Notes under the pieces: generated by a model
Seen by the model: only the letters and a program-made list of their open reading frames with translations
What the model was told of the DNA's origin: nothing
The model's database searches: none
Virus record (IMG/VR): IMGVR_UViG_2851938318_000001
From: a virus
Taxonomy: Duplodnaviria; Heunggongvirae; Uroviricota; Caudoviricetes
Length of the DNA stretch: 64,000 nucleotides
Direction: 5' to 3' (one strand)
Shown: positions 6,068 to 62,612 of the stretch, piece after piece
How positions within the stretch are numbered: position 1 is the stretch's first letter
Layout: every line of letters begins with the position of its first letter
Position numbers and translations under genes: made by a program

Positions 6068-6105
6068 TCATTGCGCTAATGGTAAGTATATACTTACCTA
6101 TTGAC

Positions 6106-6612
6106 TTAATTCAATAAATAGCCAGCAAATTCAACAGGAATGCCTGCTTCTATTAATGCCCCATCATTTTTGGGATAAATGATTGGCATCGCCATCGGTC
6201 GTACAAGTCGAAAATAAACACCACCAGATTCCGTTTCCTCTACTGGAAACATCTCAATGATTTTATTGGCTTTCTCAACCGTCGTAGTAATTGACGAACC
6301 ACGCACAATGATTGTGAATGATTCGTGATAAAAGCCCTGTAGCTCATGATCGATGCAGATGCCGGTATTTGGGTTAATAAGCAAGACGCCAGATTTCACA
6401 TTGGCAGGCAAGTAGTGACAGAAAATGTCAGTCCCGACCGTGCCAATCTTTGCCTTCTGCATCAAACTTGCAAACGCTTCGATAAACACATTAACCTCTC
6501 GTAAAACCGGCTTTTCTGGCAGCCTCAAGAATCGCTTCTGAGAACTGCTTCTCGCTAATTTCCACCGCTCTTTCCAGAAAGTGTGGCCCAACACGAGGTT
6601 TAACACCGGCAA
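6106..6612 (-). CDS. tail completion / tail terminator-like protein (start probably internal)
   Basis: position in head-tail joining block; overlaps upstream ORF so true start likely a downstream Met. Confidence 0.35.
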   Translation of the reverse strand: MPVLNLVLGHTFWKERWKLARSSSQKRFLRLPEKPVLREVNVFIEAFASLMQKAKIGTVGTDIFCHYLPANVKSGVLLINPNTGICIDHELQGFYHESFTIIVRGSSITTTVEKANKIIEMFPVEETESGGVYFRLVRPMAMPIIYPKNDGALIEAGIPVEFAGYLLN

Positions 6613-6964
6613 TTGGTGGATTTGTCACGTTCTTCATTCGAGAAAGATAACCGAGTCGATATTTACCCAGCTCCATGTACTTAGCATAGTCACCTACTTC
6701 TACGCCCGGATGCCCCTGACGTGGTTTTGCTCCAGACACAGAAAGCTCAATGCGCAGCCCTGAATAACCTTCTTTAATCACCCTGGCAAAGATAGCTGTC
6801 TCCAGAGATCCGGTTTCCAGCGGAGCCATTGCACGGCTGAGACGCTCAACCAAACGCGCCAGCTTTTCCATGTCCCGAATAAGATATCGCTTAAATGCTT
6901 TCTGGCTGTTGTTGAGTCTATTCCCCGCACGTTTGAACTGATGCGCATCGTATTTCAGACCCAT
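6491..6964 (-). CDS. head-tail joining / neck protein
   Basis: co-directional ORF in connector block. Confidence 0.4.
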   Translation of the reverse strand: MGLKYDAHQFKRAGNRLNNSQKAFKRYLIRDMEKLARLVERLSRAMAPLETGSLETAIFARVIKEGYSGLRIELSVSGAKPRQGHPGVEVGDYAKYMELGKYRLGYLSRMKNVTNPPIAGVKPRVGPHFLERAVEISEKQFSEAILEAARKAGFTRG

Positions 6965-7395
6965 ATATTCGCCCCCACTTCAAGATGCCCAGGTCTTCCT
7001 CGTAGCCCCCAGCGACGATGAACACTGGACACCTTTAATTTTTGACCTTCAAGGATCAGCACATCATCAAGTTGTACAGCCGCTTCTAAAGGGACAACTA
7101 ACACAGCATCAAACAACTCCAGACTCGCCTTACCACGGCTACCAGAGCTATCAGCACGAACTGACGATTTCTCATTACTCTGTTCGAACTTAACCACGCC
7201 GACATTCGTCTTCCTGACGAATTGCAATTGCGCCTCGCCGTAAACGTTCTTTGCGCCAAAGCGGTAGATCGCAATTTCTGTTTGCCATGAAATATTCATG
7301 CTCTCTCCCTGTTGTTGTCGGTCGCTCTCATTACTGGCCAAAAACCATTTCGACCAAAAGTAAATAATGCGACTAGCGTTACGCACGGCGAACAA
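6955..7395 (-). CDS. head-tail connector protein
   Basis: co-directional overlapping ORF in connector block. Confidence 0.4.
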   Translation of the reverse strand: MFAVRNASRIIYFWSKWFLASNESDRQQQGESMNISWQTEIAIYRFGAKNVYGEAQLQFVRKTNVGVVKFEQSNEKSSVRADSSGSRGKASLELFDAVLVVPLEAAVQLDDVLILEGQKLKVSSVHRRWGLRGRPGHLEVGANIWV

Positions 7396-8690: not shown

Positions 8691-9611
8691 TTATTCCTGT
8701 GCGGCAGTGACCTCTACGGTCGCTGTCGCTTTGTGGCTACCATCTTGTGTAGTAACCTCGATTGTGGCAGTGCCAGCCGCAACACCAGTTACAACACCGG
8801 TTTCGCTGTCCACCGTTGCAAACTCGGTATTTTTGGATTCCCAAGTAACGGTTTTATTTGTGGCTCCTACCGGCTCGACATTTGCGGTCAGCTGAACAGT
8901 TTTGTTTGCCTCAACGGTTGTGCTATTTGGGTCGATTTCGACACCAGTAACAGCCACAACAGGCGCAGTTACTTCCACCGTTGCAGTTGCCTTTTTGCTG
9001 CCATCTTGGGAAACGATCTCAATCGTCGCAGTGCCAACTTCTACACCAGTTACGTTCCCGCTCTGGTCTACCGTTGCCTTATCTTCATTTTTGGAAGACC
9101 AGGTAACAGCCTTATTCGTCGCATTTGACGGCTGAACATTCGCTTTCAGACTGACTGATTTTCCTTTCTCAACAGAGGTTGAGTCTGGCGTTACCGTTAC
9201 GGATTGAACGGCTACCGGATTTACGGTGACTTCCACTGAAGCGGAAAGCTGGGTTTCCTGATCAGTTGCAGTAATTTTTACTTTGCCTGGGGCTACGCCA
9301 GTTACTAATCCAGTGCCGTTAACGGTTGCAATTTGATCATTGGCTGACTTCCAGGTGAATGAACTGGCACTCTTACCCATAGTAATACCTGCACTAAGTT
9401 GAACAGTTTTCCCAACCAAAACTGACGGTGAAGCCGGGGTTATGTTTACGGATTGGGAGAAGGGAACCGCCTGCAAACAAGCAGATAGCTGACTTTGTTG
9501 TCGCTCGGTTAAAGGTTCATCGGAGATAGAATTGGTAAATCCGGCACGGCACATATGCCCCGTAAAATCCGAAAATGCCTCTTCCGTAATCTTCATCTTT
9601 TGTTCTGGCAT
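8691..9611 (-). CDS. Ig-like (Big_2 x3) virion decoration protein
   Basis: three tandem Big_2-like repeats (e.g. VTVTPDSTSVEKGKSVSLKANVQPSNATNKAVTWSSKNEDKATVDQSGNVTGV). Confidence 0.6.
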   Translation of the reverse strand: MPEQKMKITEEAFSDFTGHMCRAGFTNSISDEPLTERQQSQLSACLQAVPFSQSVNITPASPSVLVGKTVQLSAGITMGKSASSFTWKSANDQIATVNGTGLVTGVAPGKVKITATDQETQLSASVEVTVNPVAVQSVTVTPDSTSVEKGKSVSLKANVQPSNATNKAVTWSSKNEDKATVDQSGNVTGVEVGTATIEIVSQDGSKKATATVEVTAPVVAVTGVEIDPNSTTVEANKTVQLTANVEPVGATNKTVTWESKNTEFATVDSETGVVTGVAAGTATIEVTTQDGSHKATATVEVTAAQE

Positions 9612-9614
9612 TTC

Positions 9615-9645
9615 TCGCTCCTACAAAAAGGGTGGGCGTATAGCC
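9615..9645 (-). terminator. strong rho-independent terminator downstream of capsid gene
   Basis: aaaaa-gggtgggcgtatagcccaccc. Confidence 0.65.
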
Positions 9646-9684
9646 CACCCTTTAACATAGATAATTACTTATCTACTGCACTGA

Positions 9685-10560
9685 TTAAATTTTTACATTG
9701 GTCAGTGCAGCGATAGCCTTATCGTGCTTATTCGCCAGAGAGCAGTACCACTTCACACGGGTACGTACTGCGTCTTTGTTCTGTACAGTACCAATGTTTT
9801 CAACAACGATACCTGCGTTGTCGCCGCCATACAGACCAGTAACGCCGTTCTCTTCTGACAGATGCAGGCAGTAGATGCTTGCTTTGCCAGAATCGGTCGG
9901 GATGAAGTCGTTGATGATGAACGGAACGCCGTTGTGACACAGCATCGGACGACCGAAGTTCTCCATCATGATTTCAGACGGACCTACGTTTACTGTACGC
10001 AGCAGCGCACGGTAAGCACGCAGGTGCTCTGAACGCATCATGATGCAGTCAGCACCAAGATCTTTCACCGCATCGACCAGTTCGTCGAACATGGAGAAAG
10101 TCATAGATGCACCTGCGATGTCGATCTTCTGATCTTCATGCATCAGGCGTGGAATACCGTCGAACGCTTTGTTGTTGGAGCTGGAGTCACCCAAAATCAG
10201 GTTGCGGCGGAACGCACGAGCCAGACCTTTAACTTTCTGACGAACCTGAATAGCCAACTGGTTATTGGTGTCGGCCATAGTGGTTGCCAGGAATTTATCA
10301 ACGTCTACGTCACCAGCCAGAATACGCAGTTTCGCAACGCATTCTTCGAAGGTTGCTGCACCTTCAGGGATGGTGTCGTTAACGTCGATGAAGGTAGCTT
10401 CACTCAGCGTTTTTTCACGGTTGTACAGATATGCCTTTGAATTAATTTTCATAAAAGGCAAGATGGCAAACAGGTCATCGCGATCGATGATAGTTTCGAT
10501 CACACCCTGTTCAAGTTCGTTGTTAGACAGCTTTTCAGCTTCTTCACGCAGTAATGGCAT
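9685..10560 (-). CDS. major capsid protein (putative)
   Basis: 291 aa ORF between scaffold-like gene and decoration protein; strong terminator downstream. Confidence 0.5.
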   Translation of the reverse strand: MPLLREEAEKLSNNELEQGVIETIIDRDDLFAILPFMKINSKAYLYNREKTLSEATFIDVNDTIPEGAATFEECVAKLRILAGDVDVDKFLATTMADTNNQLAIQVRQKVKGLARAFRRNLILGDSSSNNKAFDGIPRLMHEDQKIDIAGASMTFSMFDELVDAVKDLGADCIMMRSEHLRAYRALLRTVNVGPSEIMMENFGRPMLCHNGVPFIINDFIPTDSGKASIYCLHLSEENGVTGLYGGDNAGIVVENIGTVQNKDAVRTRVKWYCSLANKHDKAIAALTNVKI

Positions 10561-10585: not shown

Positions 10586-11473
10586 TTACTTAAGTCCAAT
10601 TTTCCCCAGACCGGAGGCCAACTTATCCATAGTCGACTTGTTCTTCGGTTGGGATATTGTGTAGGTCGATTTGGAATGTGAGCCTACACCCTGCTTGGCT
10701 TCGCTACGCATCAATGCGTCAGCTTCCGGATCTGCCCGCACAATGCGTTCAATCGCGGATTCAAACGGCAACGGCTTACCTTCACCGTCAACCAGAACAG
10801 CTCGTTCTTTATGACCTGCCGGTTTGTCATAACCCACTACGCTACCGTCTTCACCCACTTCAAAATGAGAACCGTAGATCACGCGGGCTTTTGCCGGAGT
10901 CATCAGAACTTTGTCACGTAGGAAGAGAGAGTTACTGAAGGAAGCGCCCACGGTCATCTCGACTAATTGAGATTTCAGTGATGCGTTTTCACTTTCCAGT
11001 GCTGCATAACGTTCGTCACGCTGTGCCAGCTCTGCCTGGTGTGCTTCGATCATCTGTTTTTTAACAGCATCGAACTCACCACGACGCTCCAGTTCAGCTT
11101 GCTCCGCCTCACGACGTGCATTTTCTGCGGCCTGTTCAGCTTCTAAAAGCTGGCGAGCACGCGCCGGGTCGATATCACCGTACTGAGCAAGCTGATCGGC
11201 CAATGTGCGCTCTTTCTCTTTGCGCTTCATGTTCTCTTTCAGCAGTTCAGCACCAGCTTTCTTGGTTTTACGAAGTTCGGCCAGTAACTCTTCATGAGTC
11301 ATGCCAGCGTATTCGTCATCACCCTTCGGCTGCTCTTTTTGTTCACCCTGTTTGTCAGGATTTTGTGTACTCTGCTCATTATCAGCAGCTACACCGCCAG
11401 CGCCTCCACGCTCATGCGCTTCAGCAACATTCATCAGACCACGACGGGCCAAAAGCATTTGCCACAGTTTCAT
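10586..11473 (-). CDS. scaffolding protein (putative)
   Basis: charged, coiled-coil-rich (AELLKENMKRKEKERTLADQLAQ...) protein between portal and capsid. Confidence 0.45.
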   Translation of the reverse strand: MKLWQMLLARRGLMNVAEAHERGGAGGVAADNEQSTQNPDKQGEQKEQPKGDDEYAGMTHEELLAELRKTKKAGAELLKENMKRKEKERTLADQLAQYGDIDPARARQLLEAEQAAENARREAEQAELERRGEFDAVKKQMIEAHQAELAQRDERYAALESENASLKSQLVEMTVGASFSNSLFLRDKVLMTPAKARVIYGSHFEVGEDGSVVGYDKPAGHKERAVLVDGEGKPLPFESAIERIVRADPEADALMRSEAKQGVGSHSKSTYTISQPKNKSTMDKLASGLGKIGLK

Positions 11474-11494: not shown

Positions 11495-13069
11495 TCACTC
11501 GTTCTCTTGAGTAGATGAGTCCCCATTCCCTCGGGGTTGATCTTGCCCGCTTTCTTGGGCCGCGCCTTGATCATAAGTAAGTACTGACTTATTTTCAAGG
11601 GTATTTAGATCATTTTTTGGCGGAAAATTCAAGAGATCTTTATCAAATTCCTTCTTCATCGCCTCAGTGATGTTCGGGAAAATCTTCTCAATAAGCATTT
11701 CCATCTGGTGACGACGTACAGAGTCCGGTGCCTGGAGTAATGACAGTTTCTCGGCAACAGAAAATTCATCAGTAAGGCCACGAATATCAAAACTTTCTGG
11801 ATACGCAATTAAAGAGTGGTCTTCGTCCAGATCTACCCCCATCCATTTCGCAACCAGTAGCATGATTTGGCGTTCAGCCCTTTCCAGACGCTCTGCTTTT
11901 GTGACAAGCAAGCTATTTACACGCTGGAAGTCATACATTTTTGCGGCACCAGATGAGTTATCGATTCCCTGTGCGTTGTCCTGCTTCGTTCGCTCACCAG
12001 CTACACCAACTGAATGGTAGATTTCGTTAATCACCGTCTTAATCGTAGTGATGATCATCTGAGCTTGTTTCGGGTCTGGTGACAGATAAAACGGCTGGTT
12101 TCCACCTTCAGAATCGTAGGTGAAGACTCGCTTTGTGCCCATTTCAAGCACTTTAGTGTGGTTTTCATCACCAGGTAAAAGCGACTGTACCGGTATAGCC
12201 AACTGGCTAAATGTCTGATCCTGAATAATGGCATCAAGGTTTGACAGATAGTTTGCAACCGCACGATCAAGATAAGCGATATCATCGATCAACGATGGGC
12301 TGAAATACGGTGATTCGCTTTCTCCAATACAATCAACAGGAAACACAGGAACTACGCCGAGATTATGCGCACCGCTATCCTCTAAAATAACTTTTGCCTG
12401 ACGGCGACCTGCTCCACCAGCGCCCTTCTTCACTTCCTCACGGAACAGATACCACTCGTTTTGTGTCCACAGACGATAACGTTGGTATTCCTGACCTGTA
12501 GAAGTAAAAGGATCTGCGTCATCACGAGCGACTTCCACAATTAACGCCCACAACATATTCCCGTCGTCGTCCCATGCCACATCCAGCATTTGCTGAGGTG
12601 AAATCCAGTAGGCGTAGGCGCGAGCATCTTTCTTTTTCTCGTCAGCTACTGACTCAACATCACCACTCATCGTGCTATCGACAACAACCCATATGCGACC
12701 GTAAATAGACGACTGCAAATCAATAGCGGCCATAAATGAGTCAATAGAGGCATTCTGGCGGGTCGCACGTTTCCAGAAATTGCGGATCTGCTCTGGTGCC
12801 TCTTCGATATTTCTATGAATGTCTTCTTTAAAGAGATATTTGTTGATGAGGTTTACCACCTCACGAGTGTGGTTGAAGCGATAAGCACGCTCAACTCGCT
12901 CCTTAAACTCCTGATCTCCCTCTTTAAAGTAACGAAAGATATTGTCTGTAAACCAACCACGCCCGCCAGCGTAAGTGCTGGCGAGGAAGTCCCAATGTTC
13001 TTTTTTCTTTTCGTATTCCGGGTGGCGTCGCGCCACCAGATCCTTAATTTGTTTGTCGTTCAATTCCAT
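11495..13069 (-). CDS. portal protein
   Basis: 524 aa ORF directly downstream of terminase large subunit, acidic C-terminus. Confidence 0.65.
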   Translation of the reverse strand: MELNDKQIKDLVARRHPEYEKKKEHWDFLASTYAGGRGWFTDNIFRYFKEGDQEFKERVERAYRFNHTREVVNLINKYLFKEDIHRNIEEAPEQIRNFWKRATRQNASIDSFMAAIDLQSSIYGRIWVVVDSTMSGDVESVADEKKKDARAYAYWISPQQMLDVAWDDDGNMLWALIVEVARDDADPFTSTGQEYQRYRLWTQNEWYLFREEVKKGAGGAGRRQAKVILEDSGAHNLGVVPVFPVDCIGESESPYFSPSLIDDIAYLDRAVANYLSNLDAIIQDQTFSQLAIPVQSLLPGDENHTKVLEMGTKRVFTYDSEGGNQPFYLSPDPKQAQMIITTIKTVINEIYHSVGVAGERTKQDNAQGIDNSSGAAKMYDFQRVNSLLVTKAERLERAERQIMLLVAKWMGVDLDEDHSLIAYPESFDIRGLTDEFSVAEKLSLLQAPDSVRRHQMEMLIEKIFPNITEAMKKEFDKDLLNFPPKNDLNTLENKSVLTYDQGAAQESGQDQPRGNGDSSTQENE

Positions 13070-13095
13070 TTGAATAACCTTAGATAATTACTTAC

Positions 13096-14352
13096 CTATC
13101 GAGAACCACCAAGAATAACACGGTTTTTGACTGGATACCTACGATGTACTGGATAGCCCAATGCGTCTGCACTATGCTCAATGCCACCTGTCTTATCCAT
13201 ATCTCGTGTTCCAGGCTTGTAGATGACCTTTTCCAGTGAATCAATCAAATGCTTGCACTTCGGATCGATATACAGCCGGATATCTCCAGATGCGGTCATC
13301 AGCATTCGGTTAACAGCATTAACACGATCCGCAATTGGCGGGTGCTTTTTCGAATAATCGACACGTAAGAATCCCTTCTCTTTGAATATGTCTACGTCAG
13401 ACTCCCCGCGAGCATGTTGGCGATAAGCACCTGCCGGATCTGGAAATACCGTTATCTGTGATTTCCAGCGCCAGAAGCGCCTCTCAAGCTCATCACAAAC
13501 CTCTGCCGTGTTAGAGGAAAAGAGCACCAATTCATCAATTGCCCATAGCTCACCATTTGGCTGAGGTTGCAAAATTACGGAAGACATCGGGTCAATGTTG
13601 AAGTCCTGTCCTACCCATATAGGCAACCGAGGGTTGAACTGAAGCGGTTTAACATGCACGTTTCGATCGAACGGGTAGTAAACGCGCCCGGACATATTTT
13701 CAAAGCTGGCCAGGTACTCCTGAGCGAACGATTTAGGGTCCATATCGTTCTTAGCAGCTTCAATTTCCGCCGTAGGCACAAACGGCGAATCAGCAGTTAC
13801 AAACTGCCAGCTCTTCCACTGTCCCTTTCTTTGCAGCTCTACGTTCTGGCCTATAGTCCACAGTTTGTGAAATTCCGAGAAGCCTTTTGGCGTACCAATA
13901 ATCAGTGCACCGCCGCGTGTCGATGAAAGAGTAGGTCGTAACACCTTGTACCAGGTGTCAGCCTTCATATCCTGAAATTCATCAAGCACTACAAAATGCA
14001 ACGCTACGCCGCGCAGAGTGTCAGGTTTATCAGCTCCTTTGAGGGCGATCTCCGAACCGTTCTTCAACACGATTGTCATCGTGGTGTCGTTCTTTTTCCT
14101 AACCCACTTACGGGGCAGAACTTCCTGTAGATCGTCCCACAAAATCTGGCGAGCCATCTGGTAAGTAGGAGCGACATACCAGACCCTTTGCTTTTTTTCC
14201 TTTGCCGCCGCACGAATAATAGTGGAGATCGACAACCGGGATTTTCCCCAGCGTCGACCAGCACAAACAACTTTAAATCGATGCGGAGACTGGAAGACTT
14301 TCATCTGTCCAGAATGCAGTTGCACAAGACTGAGCGAGGACGGGATTGCCAT
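13096..14352 (-). CDS. terminase large subunit
   Basis: Walker A CAGRRWGKS, Walker B VVLDEFQD; start overlaps TerS stop. Confidence 0.85.
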   Translation of the reverse strand: MAIPSSLSLVQLHSGQMKVFQSPHRFKVVCAGRRWGKSRLSISTIIRAAAKEKKQRVWYVAPTYQMARQILWDDLQEVLPRKWVRKKNDTTMTIVLKNGSEIALKGADKPDTLRGVALHFVVLDEFQDMKADTWYKVLRPTLSSTRGGALIIGTPKGFSEFHKLWTIGQNVELQRKGQWKSWQFVTADSPFVPTAEIEAAKNDMDPKSFAQEYLASFENMSGRVYYPFDRNVHVKPLQFNPRLPIWVGQDFNIDPMSSVILQPQPNGELWAIDELVLFSSNTAEVCDELERRFWRWKSQITVFPDPAGAYRQHARGESDVDIFKEKGFLRVDYSKKHPPIADRVNAVNRMLMTASGDIRLYIDPKCKHLIDSLEKVIYKPGTRDMDKTGGIEHSADALGYPVHRRYPVKNRVILGGSR

Positions 14353-14984: not shown

Positions 14985-15182
14985 AGATCCCTCTAAAACA
15001 CACAGAGCGCGTCCATGCGCTCTAAAACAACTTGTTTACTGCATCTGCTAACCAACTTGTTTTCTGGTGTGTCTAATTAGGTCTGGGCATGTCTTACTAA
15101 GCCTGCTTCTGTATATATATTTAATAAGTTACTTATTATTTATATATACAGAAGCAGGTCTTTAAATAACGTCCCAGACCGA

Positions 15183-15449
15183 TTACATCACCAGTAACTT
15201 CGCTTTGGCTCGACCTAAAGTGGTTAACCCAAGAGTCCGGCGGTGATAGCGATTGTCACTGCGTTGGCGCGTATGCCCTTTCTCCACCAGCCCCTTTTTT
15301 ATCAGAGCGCGAATTGAGAACTGGATACTTTGCTTTGTTGTCTTGTACGGCAAAACTTCAAGCAATTCGTCCAGATCAAGTAGATGACCTCGCTCATAAC
15401 CGAGATTGAGCGTTTTGATGATGTCCTTTTGTTTGTCGGTTAACGTCAT
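15183..15449 (-). CDS. small winged-helix DNA-binding protein (putative)
   Basis: 88 aa basic protein; first gene after an overlapping four-gene operon. Confidence 0.35.
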   Translation of the reverse strand: MTLTDKQKDIIKTLNLGYERGHLLDLDELLEVLPYKTTKQSIQFSIRALIKKGLVEKGHTRQRSDNRYHRRTLGLTTLGRAKAKLLVM

Positions 15450-15458: not shown

Positions 15459-16349
15459 TTATGCCGGTAAAGCAATTTCTAACGGTTTATCCAAAGGTTG
15501 TTTGTCGAATGCCAGCAGTGGCAGCGTGTCAGGCAGTCGACGACCAAAGTCAGGGTTTCGATACACACCATACAACGGAGACGTAAAGCTCAGGTTGTGA
15601 ATGTCCTTGAGCAGCTTCACAATGCTGGCCTCGTCCACCAGACTGTCGGCAATGTCCTGAATCGTCGTGCCACGATTCCGCCCAGCTTTTGCCAGGGAAC
15701 TGTTCTTGTGGTAGTCCGCCACCAGATCACGCAGTGCACGGCGACGACGTGACTCGCTCATTGCGAACAACTCTTTGACGATCGCCTCGTTATCACCCGG
15801 GTCGGAGCGGAAATGGCGCTGGAACACACGCAGTGCACTTTCATAGCTCTTCGGTCGCTCAGGGCGGATGAACTTGAACCCTGCTTTCATGGCGAAGGGA
15901 TTGTATTTGCTCATCGAGGATTGGATCTCAATGATTGGCCGGTCATGCATCCTGCTAACCAGGTTAATCATTCGATAAGAGACGCCTACGCCACGGTACT
16001 GAGTATCCACAACTGAGCGGCTGATCACCGCAAAGTTGTTATTCACGTACCGGCCCCAGTACTGGTTAGCCACGGTGGTATTGGTGGTTGGTTTCAACTT
16101 AGGAAACATGCGATGGCGAGGTGCCAGCAGAAGTTTCGGGTAAGCCATAACCACGACGCCCACCAGACGGTCATCCAGTTCGCAGCGATAGTATGTTGGC
16201 GCGAAAGGTTTGCCGTCTGTTTTGTAGTGAAGCGACTTAAGAGCGTGCCAGTCCTCTACAGTTCCCTTTGTGACAGTCATTCGCTCCAGAAAGTCCAGAT
16301 GACGCGGAAACTCTTCAGGGCGGTAGCGTTTAATGATGATGTCCGTCAT
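15459..16349 (-). CDS. GNAT-like acyltransferase domain protein (putative)
   Basis: motif VVDTQYRGVGVSYRMINLV resembles GNAT motif A (R/Q-x-x-G-x-G/A). Confidence 0.35.
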   Translation of the reverse strand: MTDIIIKRYRPEEFPRHLDFLERMTVTKGTVEDWHALKSLHYKTDGKPFAPTYYRCELDDRLVGVVVMAYPKLLLAPRHRMFPKLKPTTNTTVANQYWGRYVNNNFAVISRSVVDTQYRGVGVSYRMINLVSRMHDRPIIEIQSSMSKYNPFAMKAGFKFIRPERPKSYESALRVFQRHFRSDPGDNEAIVKELFAMSESRRRRALRDLVADYHKNSSLAKAGRNRGTTIQDIADSLVDEASIVKLLKDIHNLSFTSPLYGVYRNPDFGRRLPDTLPLLAFDKQPLDKPLEIALPA

Positions 16350-17011
16350 GAATGGACCTCATCATAACTACCATTGTGATATTCCACCTTCACGCGTTCT
16401 TTGTAGTGCTTGGTGATCTGCATATCCGGGCGCAGCGCGTTCTTCAGGTCTTCGTGAGTCGTCGCCACCATTACCGTCGCACCAACCTTTCGAGCGGCAC
16501 GCTGGAGGTTAGATGCCACAACCTGAGCGGTTACACGGTCTAGAACAGCACCGAACTCGTCAGCAGCCCACACTTTAGCGCCTGACTCAATCAGTTTGGC
16601 AATCTTGAGACGATATTTCTGACCGTCTGACATTTCAGAAGGCTTGCGAACAAACAGATATGCATCGTTCAGACCAGCCATAGATAACAACCCAAGCGCA
16701 TCGCTGGTCGTTTTGCCCAACTGATCGATGACGTTAACCTCATTATCGAAGGTAAAATCATCGATGGAGGCTACAGACAGCCCTTCATCCTTCATCTGGC
16801 GTTGCAGCTCGCGCAACACAACGGATTTACCTGAACCGGATTGGCCGGTGATGTACACCACATCGCCCTGCTTCACTTCCAGCTCCAGATTGTCGTAAAG
16901 CGTCCACTCTTTTTCGTCCAGGCCAAGCCCGAACGACTCAGCGATTTCCAACGTGCGCGTGGTTTTATTTACGCGTGTCTGAAACGATACGTTGATGATG
17001 TATTTACTCAT
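16346..17011 (-). CDS. ABC-type ATPase (soluble)
   Basis: Walker A GQSGSGKS, signature-like SDGQKYRL, Walker B VWAADEFGA, H-loop TTHEDL. Confidence 0.55.
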   Translation of the reverse strand: MSKYIINVSFQTRVNKTTRTLEIAESFGLGLDEKEWTLYDNLELEVKQGDVVYITGQSGSGKSVVLRELQRQMKDEGLSVASIDDFTFDNEVNVIDQLGKTTSDALGLLSMAGLNDAYLFVRKPSEMSDGQKYRLKIAKLIESGAKVWAADEFGAVLDRVTAQVVASNLQRAARKVGATVMVATTHEDLKNALRPDMQITKHYKERVKVEYHNGSYDEVHS

Positions 17012-17709
17012 GCAGCCATCTCCCCGGAAGAGATCTTCTCCGCATATGCCACAAATGCGTCTACCCCGCTTTCTCCCGTCATTTCTTCCATATGGGCAAG
17101 CAAATCACCAACAACAATGGCAGAGCCAGCAGGGAGCGTTTTAAAGCCCAATACGTCGACAACACGTACTTCTTCCGCTGCAACTTCACGACTGATCTCG
17201 GTGTGTTCATCCTTCTGTCGTTTAGTTTCTTCGCCAAGATCGATAACTAGCGAGTCGGTGTCCATTTCTTCTGTCATACTGCCAACGAGAACATTCAACT
17301 CACGCTCTTCAAAGCCGAAAACCTCGATATCGTCCAGAACAAGCGACTCAAGCTCTTTCTGTAGCTTAATTGCATCGTAATCAATGCTGGCAAGTCGGTT
17401 ATCTTCAAGGCGCTTCGCACGAACCTCGTCATCACTGAGATCATCGCGAACAATAACCGGTACGCGCTCAAGTCCAGCAAAAATTGCAGCCTCACGGCGG
17501 CCGTGGCCAGTAATAATTACGTCGTTCTTATCGACCGTAATTGGCTGGTCAAATCCGCGCTTTTTAATGGCTGCGGCCAGATCTCGGATCTGCTGTTCAT
17601 CATGCTTTTTGGCATTCATCTCATAGGGAATAAGATCTGCCGGGTCGCGATATACGATTTCAAACTTTTTGGTCATTACATACGCTCCTTGTAGTAGTCG
17701 ACCAGCCAC
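17008..17709 (-). CDS. ParB-like nuclease domain protein
   Basis: ParB/Srx motif ITGHGRREAA; 4-bp overlap with downstream ATPase gene. Confidence 0.55.
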   Translation of the reverse strand: MAGRLLQGAYVMTKKFEIVYRDPADLIPYEMNAKKHDEQQIRDLAAAIKKRGFDQPITVDKNDVIITGHGRREAAIFAGLERVPVIVRDDLSDDEVRAKRLEDNRLASIDYDAIKLQKELESLVLDDIEVFGFEERELNVLVGSMTEEMDTDSLVIDLGEETKRQKDEHTEISREVAAEEVRVVDVLGFKTLPAGSAIVVGDLLAHMEEMTGESGVDAFVAYAEKISSGEMAA

Positions 17710-18374
17710 ACCAGAGCCTCACCAGCGTTCTCCATTTCATTACCGGTGTTAATAGCCTGCTCTTTGATGATGTTTTTTATGGTTTCTGCAACACGATCTG
17801 ACGCATCGAAAGTTACTTTGAAGCGCATGGTCTGATGTTCCGCCCCCACACGTTCGGTTTTCTCTCGTTTGTCGGTATCGACAGGCTCATCACTACCACG
17901 AGACAACGCCTCCAGTGCTTCAAGGTCGATTGCCGCCTCTTTTGCTAAAACCATCGAGATTTCGTCGTCATACGGGGCGATTTCAGACAGTTGATAGTCA
18001 AGTTCTGACTGAATTTCTTCAATGAAGCGTTGCAATGCGATTTGGTCGTCTTCACCGTATCGCTCGTTGTCCACCAGTGACATCTGTTTAGCTACGACAT
18101 CGCTAATTTTGCCCACAGAAAGCACCGGAACCGTTGAAATTCCTTGCTCAATAGCAGCACGCCAGCGATGTTCGCCGCCGAGGATTTCAAAAAATCCATC
18201 TTCAAGTTCACGAGCCAAAATTGGCTTAAAAAAGCCCAATTTTTCGATAGAACCTTTCAGTTTTTCAAAATTCTGCGCACCAACCGAATTGGTGTTCCAG
18301 GTATTCGGGCGAAGGTTGGCAACATCAACCTGCAAAATCGTGATTTTTACATCCATTTTATTGCTACAATCCAC
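17676..18374 (-). CDS. ParB-like nuclease domain protein
   Basis: ParB box ILGGEHRWRAA; ORF-track start is GTG at 18374, internal ATG at 18356. Confidence 0.55.
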   Translation of the reverse strand: MDCSNKMDVKITILQVDVANLRPNTWNTNSVGAQNFEKLKGSIEKLGFFKPILARELEDGFFEILGGEHRWRAAIEQGISTVPVLSVGKISDVVAKQMSLVDNERYGEDDQIALQRFIEEIQSELDYQLSEIAPYDDEISMVLAKEAAIDLEALEALSRGSDEPVDTDKREKTERVGAEHQTMRFKVTFDASDRVAETIKNIIKEQAINTGNEMENAGEALVWLVDYYKERM

Positions 18375-18438
18375 TAAGTAATTACTTACTTATTATAATA
18401 GCCAAATAACATACAAAAGGCACTAAGGAAAGAGGTTT

Positions 18439-19998: not shown

Positions 19999-20000
19999 TT

Positions 20001-49839: not shown

Positions 49840-49941
49840 CCTGTTTACCTCTTTCTCAGGGAGTTTAGTCTCCAGGATTTCCGGGGCGGTTCACGTAGAC
49901 TCGATATCGATGCCTGCAACAATCGTTGTCATCAGAACTCC

Positions 49942-51954: not shown

Positions 51955-53085
51955 TCACACCGCCACTGGAACCTTGATCCACGGTAGAGGGGCATAGCCA
52001 AGAATAAGAATCTCGTCCCATTTGAAATCATCCAGCTCAGACCATTCATTAGGGAAAATAACGACCGGATCTGAATGCTCTGGAGCCTGTCGTTGCATTA
52101 GCTCACGCACACTTTCCATGTGGTTATTGTACAAATGCACGTCAAAGCCAAAATGCACAAATGCACCGGCCATGTGACCCGTAATCTTCGCGAGAAAATG
52201 AGTGAGAATGCCATAGCCAGCAATATTGAATGGCATACCAACAAAAGTGTCTACGCTACGCTGTACGAGGCAGGAGTTGAGGATGCGTTTGGGGATTCCA
52301 AGTTCATCCAGTTCAGCTTCAGTAACACTGCCGTCCATCTCCAGATCGTATAGCATCTTGGTGTAGATAGACTCGTAACCGAGGCGACTGTGTTGAAGAC
52401 CAATGTCAGTTGCCATCGTTAAACGGGTTTCAAAATCCAGCTCACGACTCCACAAAGAGAAGACAAAGTGGCAAGGTGGCAGTTTCATATCCTCAAGCTC
52501 GCCTACGTTCCATGCGTTAAGCATGATGCGACGATCGGTAGGGTTCGTGCGCAGTGTATCGACAATACGCTGTAGCTGATCGATTTCACGGGACAGCACT
52601 ACGCGATCTTCACTGATACCCAGGTATCCCTCGACTTTGTACCCGCGTTCACGGAAAGTATCGATCTTGCTCAGATATTCACTATGGCTCACGATGCGGG
52701 TATCTTCCCATCGACGCCACTGCTTACCGTAAACCGGCCCCAAATCGCCATTCTCATCGGCCCATGCATCCCAAATCTTAACGCCGTTATCCTTGAGAAA
52801 TTGGATGTTGCCCGTGCCTTTCAGATACCACTCAAGTTCGACAAGCAGTGGCTTAAGATTTACTGCCTTTCCAGAAATAAGCGGCACAGTCCCACCAGTA
52901 AGCATGTAGTAAGAGGGAACGTAGCAGGTGCTTAAAGTACCAGTGCCTGTGCGATCATCAGCCTGCACGCCGCTTTTAAGCACCGTCTCAATAACTTTTG
53001 CATACGATGCGTTTGTTACCTGACCGTTCGTATGCTCACGATTCAAAAGGAGTGACACAAAAACCTCACAAAGATAAGTAATCAC
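51955..53085 (-). CDS. thyA: thymidylate synthase (with two insertions relative to E. coli ThyA)
   Basis: IWDAWADENGDLGPVYGKQWR, RRIMLNAWNVGELEDMKLPPCH (catalytic Cys), GMPFNIAGYGILTH, HLYNNH; colinear with ThyA. Confidence 0.8.
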   Translation of the reverse strand: MITYLCEVFVSLLLNREHTNGQVTNASYAKVIETVLKSGVQADDRTGTGTLSTCYVPSYYMLTGGTVPLISGKAVNLKPLLVELEWYLKGTGNIQFLKDNGVKIWDAWADENGDLGPVYGKQWRRWEDTRIVSHSEYLSKIDTFRERGYKVEGYLGISEDRVVLSREIDQLQRIVDTLRTNPTDRRIMLNAWNVGELEDMKLPPCHFVFSLWSRELDFETRLTMATDIGLQHSRLGYESIYTKMLYDLEMDGSVTEAELDELGIPKRILNSCLVQRSVDTFVGMPFNIAGYGILTHFLAKITGHMAGAFVHFGFDVHLYNNHMESVRELMQRQAPEHSDPVVIFPNEWSELDDFKWDEILILGYAPLPWIKVPVAV

Positions 53086-53134
53086 TTATTCATTAAGTGA
53101 GTTTACATTTATTGAGGGAACAAGGCCAGATAGA

Positions 53135-53168: not shown

Positions 53169-53229
53169 ATAGTTGTTTCAGGAATTTAACGCGCTAACAC
53201 AATATACATAGATAGATAACTACCTACAA

Positions 53230-54099
53230 TTATTTTTTGATCATTCCGTACATTGCTGAGGCTTTAGCTTGCTCAACAAAGGAGGATAAATCGACATCAC
53301 TATAGGTTGGAGACTTCAGAATCTTTCCATCGGAAATTCGAAAACCGATCATCTTATCGGTACCATCAGCATGGCGAAATCCCAGGTCTGAAGAGTCGTA
53401 TTTGCAGTTGGCCACAGCCTGGCGACGTTCCTCGACATCAGCAGGCCATAATTTTGTCATGTTAGACCGGTGAATTTCGCCAACCAGCTCGACTACATTG
53501 ATACCGAGGAAATCAGCCAGTCGATAGGTCATCATGCACGCCACATAGATTTTGTTCATGACACGGCGCAGTTCCTGAATCAGCTCAGAATCCTTAACAG
53601 TCTTGTTCTCAAGTTTATCTGCCAGCTCTTCGAGCATACATGACGCCTCACGAGCTTCCTGAAATGGCATTGCCATATCATCGAAAACAGTGTTACCGGG
53701 CACAAAAATTGTCTGCATAAAGCGATCAATGCTCTGTTCCTGCGTGTAATAGGTCATGCCGGTAGAAATACCACCTTTGATGGCGACCATCGTACCAACA
53801 CCAACGTATAAAAAGTCGGCCATTGCATCCAGCAGTTGCTCAATATCCCCATTCATTGCAGCTGGAATACCTTCCACTACAGCTTCTTCATGAATCAGGC
53901 TTGCACGGAGACGAAGCAGCTCTGGTGTCGGCATAACGCGTCTCGGATGCTGGAAGAGTTCATGAAACTGATCGACCATCTTGTAAATACTTTCAGTGGC
54001 TACACCATGGCCTTCATGCAACTCATATGGTTCTGGCTTAAATCCAATGAGTCGATCGGTGGCAAGTTTCAGGTGGTCAGTCAGTTTGGTAAAGTTCAT
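53230..54099 (-). CDS. hypothetical protein, possibly all-alpha NTP pyrophosphohydrolase (MazG-like)
   Basis: two EExxE/D-containing helical segments; location in nucleotide-metabolism operon. Confidence 0.25.
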   Translation of the reverse strand: MNFTKLTDHLKLATDRLIGFKPEPYELHEGHGVATESIYKMVDQFHELFQHPRRVMPTPELLRLRASLIHEEAVVEGIPAAMNGDIEQLLDAMADFLYVGVGTMVAIKGGISTGMTYYTQEQSIDRFMQTIFVPGNTVFDDMAMPFQEAREASCMLEELADKLENKTVKDSELIQELRRVMNKIYVACMMTYRLADFLGINVVELVGEIHRSNMTKLWPADVEERRQAVANCKYDSSDLGFRHADGTDKMIGFRISDGKILKSPTYSDVDLSSFVEQAKASAMYGMIKK

Positions 54100-55425: not shown

Positions 55426-57741
55426 TCAGATTTTGCAGGCTCCGTCGCACTCATCTTCTGGCTCGACGGCTACAGCTTGCGTCAGTGGATTCTGCGGTTC
55501 GTCGTCATCACGCTTTCCTGCCCCATCTCTGGTGTTGTGGTAGTAAAGCGTTTTAACTCCCATCTTGTAGGCGAGAAGCAAATCTGACAGTAGCGTCATC
55601 ATTGGGACTTTATCGCCTTCAAAGCGAGAAGGGTCATAGTTGGTATTGGCTGAAATAGCCTGGTCAAAGAACTTCTGGATGATCGCCACCTTTGTCAGAT
55701 AGCCGCGGTTGTCCGGCATATCCCACAGGTATTCATACTGTTCCTTCAGTTTTTCAAACTCAGGCACGACCATCTTAACGATGCCGTCCTTAGAAGATTT
55801 CACCGACACCGGGCCACGAGGCGGTTCGATGCCGTTGGTGGAATTAGTGATCTGGCTGGAAGTCTCGCATGGCATTTGTGCCGTCAGTGTGGAGTTGCGA
55901 AGGCCGTATTTTGCAATACGTTCACGCAGTTCTTCCCACGGCATCTTTAACTCAAAGTTGGTTTCGCCACTTTCGTCTAATGAAGAACGGTAATGGTCGA
56001 TCGGCAACTGACCAATTGCGTACTTGGTCTGCTCAAACCAGTCACACTCACCTTTTGCTTCAGCAAGTCGGCAGCTGGCATCAAGAAGGTAATACTGGAT
56101 AGCTTCGAACGTTTCATGCACCAGTTTATTGCCAGCGGTATCAGAATAACGAACGCCATTCTTTGCCAGGTAATAAGCAAAGTTGGTTACACCAATTCCC
56201 AAGCTACGACGAGCTTTGGCAGGCACTTCGGCTGCCTCCATCGGATAGTCTTGATAATCCAGTAACGAATCCAGTGCAGCAACGGCATAGAACGCCACCT
56301 CTTTAAGAGACTCCAGTGAACGGATGGCTCCGAGGTTAAAAGCGGATAAAGTGCATAGCGCGATCTCACCGTTCGGGTCGTCGGTAAATGCCAGTGGACG
56401 AGTGGGTAGAGTGATCTCCATGCACAGGTTTGACTGGCGAACAGGTGCAAGAGCAGGAATGAAAGCGCCATGCTCGTTAATATGATCGACGTTCGCAATA
56501 TAAATTCGGCCCGTGGACGCTCGTTCCTGCATCAGAGATGAGAACAGCTCAATGGCAGGTACTGACTTCTTGCGAATTGAATCATCGGCTTCGTATTTAT
56601 GGTACAGCTTTTCAAACAGCTCCTGGTCTGTGAAGAAGGCTTCGTACATATCAGGCACATCATGCGGGCTGAACAGAGTGATGTTCTCGCTTCTGACGAG
56701 TCGACGGTACATTAGACGGTTACTCATGACGCCGTAATCAAGATGGCGAACGCGGTTTTCATCAATACCACGGTTATTTTTCACCACCAGCAGACTTTCA
56801 ACTTCAAGATGCCAGATCGGGTAAAACGCTGTTGCTGCGCCACCACGAACACCACCTTGCGAACAAGATTTAACAGCCGTCTGGAAATGCTTCAGGAATG
56901 GAATAACTCCAGTATGGGTGGCTTCACCATTGCGGATCTCGCTGCCCAGCGCACGGATACGGCCAAAACCAATACCAATTCCAGCACGACGTGAAACGTA
57001 GTCGATAATTGCGGCTGAAGCTGCACTAATCCCTTTCAGACTATCGCCAGACTCAATCAGCACACAACTGGAGAACTGACGGGTTGGAGTACGGACGCCG
57101 GCCATGATTGGTGTGGGCAGAGACAGTTTGAACGTACTTGTAACGTCATAGAAACCTTTGACCATCTCCATACGTGTTTTGCCAGCGCAGTCGTCTTCCC
57201 AATTCTGGAACAGACACATGCCTACCAGCATATAGATATGTTGCGGCCCCTCATGAATCTCACCAGTAACACGGTTTTGAACGAGGTATTTGCTTTGCAA
57301 CTGCACCGTAGCTGCATAGCCAAAAAGATCGTCACGTTTCGGCTTAATGTAATTGCCGAGTTCTTCGATCTCTTCAAACGAATAATGTGTCAGCAAATCC
57401 TTGTCATAAACGCCCTTGTTAACGTTCTTGACAATGTGTTGGTAGAAGTTCGGATAGTCGTAACGACCGAAGGCATCTTTGCGGATTTTAAAAATGTTCA
57501 GGCGGGCAGCCACCTGTGAGTAATTTGGTGCTTCTGGTGAGATCAAATCAGCGGCAGATTTAACCAAAGCCTCATGCAACTGGCTGGTGGTAATCCCATC
57601 AAAAATGCTGGCCGCAGCTCCCATTGCTACAGCGGATGCGCTTACACCACGAATGCCTTCTACGCCATACATTACGACGCGGTTGTATTTTTCTTCGGAT
57701 AACGGCTCTGTTTGGCCGTTACGTTTTACGATGCTTATCAT
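55426..57741 (-). CDS. nrdA: ribonucleotide reductase class Ia alpha subunit
   Basis: near-colinear with E. coli NrdA (VTGEI, PTPIM.GVRTPTRQFSSCVLIE, SCSQGGVRGGAAT, NLC.EI, C-terminal CxxxC). Confidence 0.92.
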   Translation of the reverse strand: MISIVKRNGQTEPLSEEKYNRVVMYGVEGIRGVSASAVAMGAAASIFDGITTSQLHEALVKSAADLISPEAPNYSQVAARLNIFKIRKDAFGRYDYPNFYQHIVKNVNKGVYDKDLLTHYSFEEIEELGNYIKPKRDDLFGYAATVQLQSKYLVQNRVTGEIHEGPQHIYMLVGMCLFQNWEDDCAGKTRMEMVKGFYDVTSTFKLSLPTPIMAGVRTPTRQFSSCVLIESGDSLKGISAASAAIIDYVSRRAGIGIGFGRIRALGSEIRNGEATHTGVIPFLKHFQTAVKSCSQGGVRGGAATAFYPIWHLEVESLLVVKNNRGIDENRVRHLDYGVMSNRLMYRRLVRSENITLFSPHDVPDMYEAFFTDQELFEKLYHKYEADDSIRKKSVPAIELFSSLMQERASTGRIYIANVDHINEHGAFIPALAPVRQSNLCMEITLPTRPLAFTDDPNGEIALCTLSAFNLGAIRSLESLKEVAFYAVAALDSLLDYQDYPMEAAEVPAKARRSLGIGVTNFAYYLAKNGVRYSDTAGNKLVHETFEAIQYYLLDASCRLAEAKGECDWFEQTKYAIGQLPIDHYRSSLDESGETNFELKMPWEELRERIAKYGLRNSTLTAQMPCETSSQITNSTNGIEPPRGPVSVKSSKDGIVKMVVPEFEKLKEQYEYLWDMPDNRGYLTKVAIIQKFFDQAISANTNYDPSRFEGDKVPMMTLLSDLLLAYKMGVKTLYYHNTRDGAGKRDDDEPQNPLTQAVAVEPEDECDGACKI

Positions 57742-57780: not shown

Positions 57781-57814
57781 ATGTTAATAGATAAGCACTT
57801 ACCTATCAATGAAA

Positions 57815-61043: not shown

Positions 61044-61318
61044 ATAACACCTCTGATACCGTGTGTTAGCTTTTGGCCTTCTTTCAATCTGAACTCCGTA
61101 TGCGCCGGGAAGGATCTGCGCCTCAATACGCCTTTTCTTGTTAACCTTCCAAGATAAAACGCTACGGGATTTCCTTGTGGCGGGTAGGGCTTGTGAAACA
61201 TCACCGTCTGGCCTCGTTCAAGTCTTTTCATCGTGATGGCAAAGTCTCGAAAGCTCCCATAACGACTTTGCTTCACACAGCCTCCGAACTCTCCGCTTCG
61301 GTGAGGATTTCCTGACAC
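61040..61318 (-). CDS. hypothetical basic protein
   Basis: 92 aa ORF between SbcD- and SbcC-like genes. Confidence 0.3.
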   Translation of the reverse strand: MSGNPHRSGEFGGCVKQSRYGSFRDFAITMKRLERGQTVMFHKPYPPQGNPVAFYLGRLTRKGVLRRRSFPAHTEFRLKEGQKLTHGIRGVI

Positions 61319-62358
61319 AAAATATCCAATTTGCTCAGATCAAATCCGCCGTCAGTATCGTGGACAATCTTGCAATAAGCAGATACCGACTCTCCCAGGC
61401 TATCGATTTTGCTGGTTTCAGTTGTGCTGGCTGTCCCTTCCATCATTGATGACTTACGGATGAAGTTGCACACGACACCTTTTGCACCCATTGTTTTGAG
61501 GATGTTCTGGTACTTAATGCCTTCTTCATCGTTCTCAATTACGGCGCGGAAACGCACGTAGTTGCCGCGAATTTGGTCATCAGCAACATCATCTTCCAGG
61601 TTAATGAATTTAGGCGCACTGGTTTCGTAGTGACTGAAACTGCCGTCCGGGTTTACGATCATGTAGCCAGCCAGAGATCCAACATCTCCCCAATTTTGAT
61701 GAGTCAGTGCACCGACACTGATAACTCCAGGAATGACCTCTTTGTGGTTGTGGTAATGCCCACTAAGCACGAGACGAAAGCCGATATCCTTTAACTCCTG
61801 CGCATCGATACCGACGTCAGGCATTGTTGGAATGGCTTTGTTAATGGATGTATGGATAACAACGTCATGATTATCACCTTCTACGCTCTTACGTAATGCT
61901 TTCAGATCGCTGATAAGCTCCGCATGATTGTTACGCCAGCTAATCAGGTGGACAGTCACATCACCAATTTTTATTGAGTGTGGGCGCTTGCCACATACGA
62001 TTACCACGCCGATAGAACTCAGCGATGCTGCTGCGTTGGCGCTATATACTGAATCGTTGGTTTCAAGATCGTGATTACCGGCCAGCATTACTACTGTCAG
62101 ATCAAGCTCGTTGATAATCCACTTGTACGTTTCAGTTACGTAATGCAAAACAGAAGGGGACACAGTTCCTCGGACGTGAAATGTATCACCGGCAACCAAC
62201 ATGTACTTACAACCGGCCTTCTTCATGGCGATGGCTGCTTCTTTCGTTGCTTCCAACTGTATTTCAAGTCTGGAGTTAAGCCCCTCAGCGTTCGTCGTGG
62301 AGAACGCATCCCATTTGTGGTAGTGGCAGTCAGAAATGACGCCGTATGGCAAAGTCAT
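61273..62358 (-). CDS. SbcD/Mre11-like nuclease (calcineurin-like phosphoesterase)
   Basis: metallophosphatase motifs DCHYH, GDTFH, GNHD; paired with SbcC-like gene. Confidence 0.8.
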   Translation of the reverse strand: MTLPYGVISDCHYHKWDAFSTTNAEGLNSRLEIQLEATKEAAIAMKKAGCKYMLVAGDTFHVRGTVSPSVLHYVTETYKWIINELDLTVVMLAGNHDLETNDSVYSANAAASLSSIGVVIVCGKRPHSIKIGDVTVHLISWRNNHAELISDLKALRKSVEGDNHDVVIHTSINKAIPTMPDVGIDAQELKDIGFRLVLSGHYHNHKEVIPGVISVGALTHQNWGDVGSLAGYMIVNPDGSFSHYETSAPKFINLEDDVADDQIRGNYVRFRAVIENDEEGIKYQNILKTMGAKGVVCNFIRKSSMMEGTASTTETSKIDSLGESVSAYCKIVHDTDGGFDLSKLDILCQEILTEAESSEAV

Positions 62359-62612
62359 GTGTTTTTCCTTTGTGGTTATTTTGATACAAATTCTAAGAGC
62401 AATGAGGAGGTAAACAACTATGCATAACGGTATGTTAGGAATGAAACGAGCGCCTTAATATACAAAATTTATAAGTAAGTATATACCTATTTATCGTGGC
62501 GCAACTTTGCTTGTCTGTATGACTAAAAATAAGACTGGATCACTGTAGAACGCTATGAGAGCTATTTTGAGGGGGCGTAGATTCTATCTACGCCAATATA
62601 CGATCTGGAGGG

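Follow-up and report, generated by a model that had tools for sequence, protein, structure and literature searches.

A palindrome of 18 to 20 bp recurs at gene and operon boundaries across a 64,000-nucleotide stretch of DNA from a virus of the class Caudoviricetes (IMG/VR record IMGVR_UViG_2851938318_000001), hereafter the window, which is an SSU5-like phage-plasmid. Its recurrence had been noticed in a first-pass annotation made from the letters alone, which offered binding sites of a phage regulator, RNA processing hairpins or late-promoter elements as candidate functions, and is real. The first of these functions is the one supported by our analysis, because each genome carries one consensus, the consensus changes symmetrically between clades, and the junctions are kept while their flanks diverge. 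We put about an even chance on the palindromes being operators of a single phage-encoded regulator with two-fold symmetry, a repressor that would keep the lytic units off; protein binding, repression and the identity of the binder are what we infer from these sequences. By analogy with known systems, we assign the element to the class of dispersed operator sets of a phage global regulator, and it appears not to have been described previously in the literature searched.

With a 4-kb probe, identity was about 98% to Cyrano (pLF82) and CMS-2020a, both phage-plasmids of Escherichia coli, and 79% to Salmonella phage SSU5. Running in the opposite orientation, the window is colinear with Cyrano 61.7-108.4 kb plus 1-15.1 kb, and therefore carries most of its genes on the minus strand; 663 plasmids in PLSDB match its structural region. 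With a guanine-plus-cytosine (GC) content of about 47%, it is not an AT-rich genome.

The palindrome, its sites and their conservation

Aligning the sites listed in the first-pass annotation gave an 18-bp palindrome; as an element of 18-20 bp, its consensus has the left half (A)TAGGTAAGT and the right half ACTTACCTA(T). Each half-site consists of TAGGTA followed by a less constrained inner trinucleotide, with 6 bp between the two TAGGTA hexamers. The skeleton that is invariant across clades, TAnnTAnnTAnnTAnnTA, has a TA every four bases, which is why secondary matches appear shifted by four, and can also be written TAGGTA-N6-TACCTA. In the information profile of 40 Cyrano and SSU5 sites, the palindrome was one base longer on each side (A...T) and was followed further out by a weaker symmetric flank, roughly ATGA...TCAT; the outer TAGGT/ACCTA was most conserved and the centre least. 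A 26-bp oligonucleotide representing a site reads ATGATAGGTAAGTACTTACCTATCAT.

Within the window, the 10-mer TAGGTAAGTA occurred 13 times with at most one mismatch, where 2.0 occurrences were expected, and the 18-mer TAGGTAAGTACTTACCTA occurred ten times with at most three mismatches, compared to an analytic chance estimate of about 0.02. To avoid circularity, a symmetrised weight matrix of 20 columns was built from 22 SSU5 sites only (78% DNA identity) and applied with a cut-off of 14 bits. It returned 15 window sites, compared to 0.05 expected from 200 first-order Markov shuffles, at 6079/6083, 9658, 11574, 13081, 18375, 27031, 39729, 44708, 45883, 46264, 46923, 53071, 53209, 57788 and 62472 (Table 1). 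At 46264, the matrix had matched the loop of a separate hairpin of about 55 bp, in its second copy; the palindrome itself is present in about fourteen copies. Ten of the twelve positions given in the first-pass annotation are members of the family (6081, 9656, 13081, 18376, 39728, 44706, 46921, 53214, whose true start is 53209, 57788 and 62471). The other two are not: 53093 holds no site, its real neighbour being 53071-53088, and 15117 shows six mismatches and lies in the loop of the different hairpin, with the arm CCTGCTTCTGTATATA. That list lacked three sites, at 27031, at 45883 and, in the portal gene's 3' end, at 11574.

The hairpins of about 55 bp form a second repeat family with conserved arms and an AT-rich loop, found at window 15102-15158 and 46239-46293 and at Cyrano ~31160-31225. 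They sit after a winged-helix gene (before the small terminase gene, terS), after the methyltransferase gene and after CYRAN_30, their loops give weak false matches to the palindrome, and each is probably a strong, perhaps bidirectional, terminator.

The placement of the palindrome at gene or operon boundaries was confirmed. In Cyrano, whose genome is 87% coding, 27 of the 28 sites found with up to five mismatches are intergenic or overlap a stop codon, and the only intragenic site in the window is 11574. The junction between terminase and portal genes, which the first-pass annotation had singled out, is indeed occupied, by the site at 13081.

Table 1 Palindrome sites and candidate binding proteins, in window coordinates.
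Feature	Coordinates	Strand	Context
Site, overlapping registers 6079 and 6083	6079-6100		12 nt upstream of the ATG of a tail protein gene, 5285-6067(-)
Site TAGATAATTACTTATCTA	9658-9675		Between the major capsid gene, 9685-10560(-), and an Ig-domain gene, 8691-9611(-)
Site and promoter	11570-11598	-	Palindrome 11574-11591 in the 3' end of the portal gene; points at gene 10586-11473(-)
Site	13081-13098		Shares bases with the TAG stop codon of the gene for the large terminase, 13096-14352(-); portal ATG (13069) 11 nt further on
Site (palindrome 18375-18392)	18375-18399		Divergent region between a ParB-N-domain gene, 17676-18374(-), and the UvsW-like helicase operon, 18439-19998(+)
Weaker site, in gene direction ATTGTAAGTACATACCTA	27031-27048		After a terminator; followed 4 nt later by TATAAAAT; upstream of gene 26591-26986(-)
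Site	39729-39746		1 nt past the stop of a DUF4942 gene, 39747-41432(-); upstream of gene 38981-39685(-)
Site	44708-44725		Overlaps the RNase H stop codon; TCAT comes next
Degenerate site, in gene direction TAGATAAGTACAAACTAT	45883-45900		SSU5 counterpart at 78710
Site	46923-46940		12 nt upstream of the ATG of an adenine methyltransferase gene, 46317-46910(-); preceded by a terminator
Site	53071-53088		Just ahead of the ribosome-binding site of thyX, 51955-53085(-), which has a GTG start; after a terminator
Site	53209-53226		Right after the stop of a MazG-like gene, 53230-54099(-); upstream of a terminator
Site and predicted promoter	57781-57809	-	Palindrome 57788-57805 after a RuvC-like gene; before the ribonucleotide reductase alpha gene, 55426-57741(-)
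Site	62472-62489		Upstream of an SbcD-like gene, 61273-62358(-)
Candidate binder 1	20001-20279	+	92-aa protein, CYRAN_117 / SSU5_123 family
Candidate binder 2	15183-15449	-	88-aa winged-helix protein, immediately upstream of terS

The palindrome is also conserved in related genomes, at orthologous junctions across E. coli, Salmonella, Klebsiella, Cronobacter, Xenorhabdus-type and Yersinia pestis elements. The 18 sites of Cyrano (up to four mismatches) and the 22 of SSU5 occupy the same junctions, although the sequences around them have diverged to about 78% identity, and nine sites were found in the 40 kb examined of a Y. pestis pMT plasmid. The conserved junctions of the structural and lysis genes include terminase/portal, the 3' end within the portal gene, the position after the capsid gene and those before the tail, tail-fibre and holin genes; the metabolic ones include the helicase-operon, SSB, SbcD, ribonucleotide reductase, thyX and methyltransferase genes. 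The site at 6079, for example, has orthologues at Cyrano 9019, SSU5 9068 and pMT L151:29074, and the weaker site at 27031 is kept in SSU5 at 93166.

Relatives with more divergent terminases carry a modified palindrome at the same junctions, with the two halves TAAGTAAGT and ACTTACTTA in Klebsiella-type elements, TAGGTATTT and AAATACCTA in the Xenorhabdus/Moellerella type and TAGGTAGTT and AACTACCTA in a Cronobacter/Enterobacter clade. Positions 7-8 of the half-site vary by clade (AG, GT, TT) in concert on both arms, TAGGT/ACCTA and the skeleton with TA every 4 bp stay constant, and the version of a clade is common to all sites of one genome, as would be expected from co-evolution with a symmetric trans-acting factor that reads the sequence. 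The site inside the portal gene follows the same pattern: in every clade it is flanked by TTGAAA and TGAT, and the inner palindrome is clade-specific together with the peptide that it encodes (KSVLT, RYVNT, RLSTT, KLALT). Since the peptide varies while the flanking codons stay constant, selection at this point of the portal gene acts on the DNA.

Promoter overlap and a putative repressor

Several palindromes overlap core promoters. At 11574, the palindrome fills the 17-bp spacer of a conserved sigma-70-type promoter, TTGAAA (11593-11598)-N17-TATGAT (11570-11575), and in Cyrano and SSU5 a TTGAAA-N17-TATCAT stands directly after a terminator, upstream of the membrane-protein gene that follows recA. 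At 57788, it lies within a conserved TTGATA (57804-57809)-N17-TAACAT (57781-57786), an arrangement shared with SSU5 and pMT; the start predicted for it is in the 5' arm of the terminator preceding the ribonucleotide reductase alpha gene. The UvsW promoter has its TATAAT at 18394-18399(+), 1 nt past the site, and no -35, which places the centre of the site near -22; in most clades examined, a TATAAT, TAGAAT or TATAGT is found 0-2 nt from the palindrome in this divergent ParB/UvsW region (weakly in Cronobacter). The holin gene has a conserved extended -10 (TGATATAAA) 21 nt after its site, whose centre is thus near -42, and at the methyltransferase gene (46923) the -10 of a predicted TTGCCA-N17-AAAAAT promoter reaches as far as the first base of the palindrome, T. 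Relative to the -10, the sites are found in registers between about -42 and about +10.

In at least five cases, the palindrome ends 1-13 nt short of a start codon and a ribosome-binding site (RBS) comes directly after it, so that the transcript must start within or upstream of the site. Six or more gaps are ordered gene, terminator, site, gene, and three or four are ordered stop codon, site, terminator, gene. The first-pass annotation rightly noted sites standing before terminators (9658, 57788 and 53209); around 9658, for instance, the capsid stop is followed in gene direction by the site, an intrinsic terminator (~9625-9655) and the Ig-domain gene. Such sites could be accounted for by promoters whose predicted start falls inside the 5' arm of the terminator stem, in which case transcripts arriving from upstream would terminate and those started at the site would be unable to form the full hairpin.

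The units that bear sites comprise structural, lysis, replication, recombination and nucleotide-metabolism genes, i.e. lytic genes of early and late type, and no sites lie in the regions of the replication initiator, of partition, of toxin-antitoxin genes or of accessory genes. All of the observed positions lie within the region covered by the polymerase, which fits a repressor, whereas an activator that depends on contact needs a fixed position; together, the varied registers and the restriction to lytic genes therefore favour a single repressor of lytic units. The binder would be a dimer or a dimer of dimers on double-stranded DNA. By overlapping the region occupied by RNA polymerase at lytic promoters, it would act through promoter occlusion, holding about 25 lytic units of the plasmid prophage silent and releasing all of them together on induction.

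Two small proteins are candidates for the binder, the ribbon-helix-helix-like product of 20001-20279 and the winged-helix product of 15183-15449. The gene of the former, a 92-aa protein, follows the UvsW-like helicase gene in synteny across all clades examined, and its expression in the LF82 lysogen was 12-fold above the local background (PMC9928086). The protein was modelled with an extended N-terminus, two helices and a C-terminal helical pair; its best structural matches, all weak, were the ribbon-helix-helix binders NikR, TraM, PcfF and a VapB antitoxin, and no sequence-level link to Arc, Mnt, Pfam or PDB was found. Depending on the clade, its N-terminal strand reads CQVAL, CHLKL or VQFRAT; co-variation of this strand with the motif was suggestive in three clades and contradicted by Cronobacter, and was not retained. 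In the 88-aa winged-helix protein, the putative recognition helix is nearly invariant across clades and the wing is variable, and a near-invariant helix is what the conserved TAGGTA would be expected to call for. Foldseek placed it nearest to the LexA DNA-binding domain (probability 0.99, but E 0.14), and a single-sequence homologue search returned close relatives only. Both genes are present in ~790-800 PLSDB plasmids, including those of Yersinia, and being family-wide they are not told apart by plasmid counts.

Several observations weigh against a repressor of this kind. Direct repression of structural-gene promoters is unusual in temperate phages, and many sites have no recognisable -35, some of them, such as that at the terminase/portal junction, no convincing promoter at all. 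The strand of the 92-aa protein that is predicted to face the DNA is identical in E. coli and Cronobacter types despite their differing inner half-sites, and strongly different in Xenorhabdus types though TAGGTA is kept there. The gene of the 88-aa protein, in turn, is missing from those for which expression in the lysogen was reported (PMC9928086), which would fit a regulator of the lytic phase better than a maintenance repressor.

Other proteins were considered and set aside. CYRAN_45, a helix-turn-helix protein suggested as 'master repressor' for Cyrano, has no homologue in SSU5, which has 22 sites. Outside the window, at Cyrano 42604-42621, a related palindrome with changed outer bases, CTGGTAAGTGCTTACCGA, lies 30 nt upstream of the CYRAN_45 gene in a divergent region by an integrase, in a module absent from SSU5; it may be the operator of CYRAN_45 as a separate repressor, or a coincidence. 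The two ParB-like proteins encoded in the window seem unlikely binders, as both match only Pfam ParB_N and no helix-turn-helix-like segment was seen by eye after their GxxRxxA box. They belong to a conserved operon, 15459-18374(-), directly upstream of the winged-helix gene and terS, which encodes these two proteins, with their ParB/Srx N-terminal domain and GxxRxxA arginine patch, together with an ABC-type ATPase and a 296-aa protein without a Pfam match; the first ParB-like protein diverges much faster than its surroundings (45% identity, compared to ~80% in neighbours).

Alternative readings

An alternative explanation, unlikely though far from negligible, is that the palindrome is an activator box of the P1 type, located upstream of a -10 without a -35, with the winged-helix protein encoded upstream of terS as the activator. 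The precedent is phage-plasmid P1, in which 11 late promoters carry a 9-bp inverted repeat bound by Lpa (PMC10695390). In P1, the repeat stands around -22, and host RNA polymerase recognises such promoters only with the help of Lpa. The two systems share about a dozen short inverted repeats upstream of a -10, before morphogenesis and lysis operons of a phage-plasmid, and the E. coli-type core AAGT/ACTT resembles the boxes annotated in P1, AAGTTACTT and ATGTGACTT. However, the repeat here is 18-20 bp instead of 9 bp, and the resemblance is lost in clades with ATTTAAAT or AGTTAACT. The winged-helix gene precedes terS as lpa precedes pacA, and its recognition helix is as constant as TAGGTA, but no Lpa homologue was found by tblastn against the window and Cyrano, the only match (E 0.17-0.29 over 52 residues) falling in an open reading frame, 20312-20911, that is missing from SSU5. 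This frame (PHROG 13473) belongs to a segment of low GC content (window 20000-24000, 0.38 compared to ~0.47 elsewhere) with accessory genes in mixed orientation, and its weak match to the N-terminus of P1 Lpa is probably spurious.

The geometry of the promoters is similarly divided. The UvsW site, directly upstream of a conserved TATAAT without a -35, has the layout of an Lpa promoter, and the holin site has its centre at a classical activator position. Two other conserved sites, at 11574 and after recA (in Cyrano and SSU5), instead have a good -35 hexamer on one side and a good -10 on the other, at the optimal spacing of 17 bp, where no activator is needed, and the register is not fixed. At 23 of the 40 Cyrano and SSU5 sites, a -10-like hexamer begins 16-20 nt from the start of the site, the best-scoring register being formed by the terminal TA of the palindrome and the four bases next to it (TATCAT, TATGAT). 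Yet the mirror-image hexamer on the opposite side scores equally, so that the flank is part of the symmetric site and not a directional signal, and a directional -10 element in the flanks was ruled out. The late-promoter role named in the first-pass annotation stands only as far as core promoters are overlapped at several junctions: an RBS directly after several sites leaves no room for a start downstream, and sites are not restricted to late operons but are also found upstream of thyX, the helicase operon and the genes of SSB, SbcD, ribonucleotide reductase and the methyltransferase. Of the defining features of the P1 Lpa system, an Lpa homologue was not found, the restriction to late operons is lacking, and the layout without a -35 is seen at the UvsW promoter but not at 11574 or after recA.

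A second alternative is that the sites serve another DNA transaction, as operon roadblocks, as points for nucleation of compaction or silencing or for bridging, as loading sites for the ParB/Srx-domain proteins with the ABC-type ATPase, or as recombination linkers. We regard this as quite improbable. Some sites do lack a recognisable promoter and stand between a stop codon and a terminator or RBS, but promoter overlap is kept across clades at several others. The promoter of the ParB-N-domain operon has a site in every clade, and KorB of RK2 (IncP), a ParB-family global regulator, offers a precedent with its OB operators, about a dozen dispersed palindromes of which some overlap promoters and others are remote. 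KorB has a helix-turn-helix domain, however, whereas the ParB-like proteins here match the N-terminal domain only, and the operator sequences are unrelated to those of KorB. As to recombination, Cyrano and SSU5 regain nucleotide homology within 8-11 nt of the palindromes at Cyrano 26658 and 63200 (= window 62472), following non-homologous segments with the tail fibre and with accessory genes, respectively; about 0.2 such coincidences were expected, and conserved sites may serve as recombination anchors for module exchange. The 18 Cyrano sites are nevertheless no nearer to homology breakpoints than random positions (median 740 nt compared to 820 nt, P 0.45), and apart from these two exact coincidences a recombination-boundary role was rejected. 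T4-type 'promoter-early stem-loop' cassettes and other phage boundary sequences are similar in pairing a recurrent motif of promoter type with a stem-loop behind it where genes meet, and in the two sites at mosaic breakpoints, but here sites are not enriched at breakpoints overall and the hairpins after the motif are not repeated.

The last alternative, that the palindromes are RNA hairpins in polycistronic transcripts and act in processing, stabilisation or antitermination or as target of an RNA-binding repressor such as the FljA-like product of 22200-22721, is very improbable. Sites are transcribed at several junctions, since an RBS follows directly, and some stand before terminators, but their predicted hairpins are weak (mean about -3.9 kcal/mol, several 0.0) and the antisense strand folds equally well. 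Mismatched pairs also fail to show the preference of RNA: A·C is as frequent as G·U in Cyrano and SSU5 sites (27, i.e. 25+2, compared to 26, i.e. 21+5) and nearly so at the outer stem positions of 180 unique sites in gene orientation (47 A·C, 55 G·T). The would-be loop at the centre is least conserved and the stem base most, no Rfam family matched the sites, and of the features of intrinsic terminators or structured RNA none was seen (no stable stem, no strand-specific pairing, no U-tract). The weak, symmetric folding, the A·C tolerance and the lack of an Rfam match together indicate that the element is read as double-stranded DNA. A homologue of the phase-1 flagellin repressor FljA, which acts on mRNA, is encoded nearby (Pfam Flag1_repress, E 5e-81), but none was found in the Xenorhabdus-type loci examined. 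This homologue, 22200-22721(+), is full-length, has a weak Hfq/LSM-like C-terminal match and is one of the accessory genes of the low-GC segment; SSU5 and the Klebsiella-type, Cronobacter and Y. pestis elements have it as well.

Related operator systems, neighbouring features and significance

Returning to the putative repressor, two further phage systems count among the nearest functional analogues, beside the Lpa boxes of P1 and the KorB operators of RK2. The P1 C1 operators are alike in that one repressor controls many lytic operons through promoter-overlapping operators scattered over a plasmid prophage of ~90-110 kb. The P1 record annotates them at pmgT, lpa, c1 and coi as 17-bp 'monovalent' sites, unlike the perfect-type palindrome of 18-20 bp seen here. 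The C1 operator sequence is asymmetric, and the structural genes of P1 are controlled by Lpa instead of directly by C1.

The verified immI operators of P22, which belong to the ribbon-helix-helix repressors Mnt (TAGGTCCACGGTGGACCTG) and Arc (ATGATAGAAGCACTCTACTAT) and are given in record X01916, have outer TAGGT/ACCT or TAGA/TCTA boxes and an ATGA flank in common with the motif, and in Pant the Arc operator occupies the interval from -35 to -10, as the site at 11574 does in its promoter. The layout of an Arc/Mnt-type operator, two TAGR-type boxes (TAGGTA-N6-TACCTA) overlapping a promoter, is thus present, as a resemblance only, and Mnt resembles the 92-aa candidate in being small and in having a helical C-terminal part for oligomerisation. 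Arc and Mnt have one operator each, however, compared to about 25 here, the spacing of the outer boxes differs by 1 bp, and the 92-aa protein has no sequence similarity to either and only a weak fold assignment.

The palindrome does not fit the LexA (SOS) box CTGT-N8-ACAG. The only LexA-type box in the window is a perfect one, CTGTATATACATACAG, at 34581-34596, 19 nt upstream of the start of a 129-aa Peptidase_S24 (UmuD-like) gene, 34173-34562(-), which suggests that this gene is SOS-controlled; Cyrano is inducible by ciprofloxacin (PMC9928086). An IS3-family insertion at ~48587-49893 is absent from Cyrano and comprises orfA, 49513-49839(-), with HTH_Tnp_1, and orfB, 48626-49516(-), with rve, and an Rfam ALIL frameshift pseudoknot at 49442-49558(-). 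Since Cyrano 75789-75794 is found on both sides of the insertion, it interrupts an epsilon-like 3'-5' exonuclease gene near its 5' end.

No earlier report of the sequence, or of repeats in SSU5, pHCM2 or pMT1, was found in the literature searched, which did not extend to one 2026 preprint on an SSU5-type phage-plasmid. Nor did this literature give an account of how SSU5-like elements silence ~100 kb of lytic genes or switch them on after DNA damage. These phage-plasmids are common in clinical Enterobacteriaceae and include the Y. pestis pMT plasmids and, according to the literature, pHCM2 of Salmonella Typhi. If the palindromes are only a conventional operator set, the finding is useful and not surprising. 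In its strongest form, which we hold tentatively and think rather unlikely, one small Arc/Mnt-like (or winged-helix) protein would be a genome-wide silencer of a 108-kb plasmid prophage, acting through about 25 TA-phased palindromes at every lytic unit boundary, placed in promoter spacers, at +1 or fused to terminators, and the same protein might activate a few promoters, e.g. that of the holin gene. If this were true, it would amount to an on/off architecture that is insulated and run by a single factor across ~800 enterobacterial plasmids, including those of the Y. pestis pMT1 type. For the question of lysogeny in these elements, the palindrome supplies a regulon map, operator mutations that can be tested and two small candidate regulators, and because it marks the boundaries of transcription units it is an aid to their annotation and engineering.

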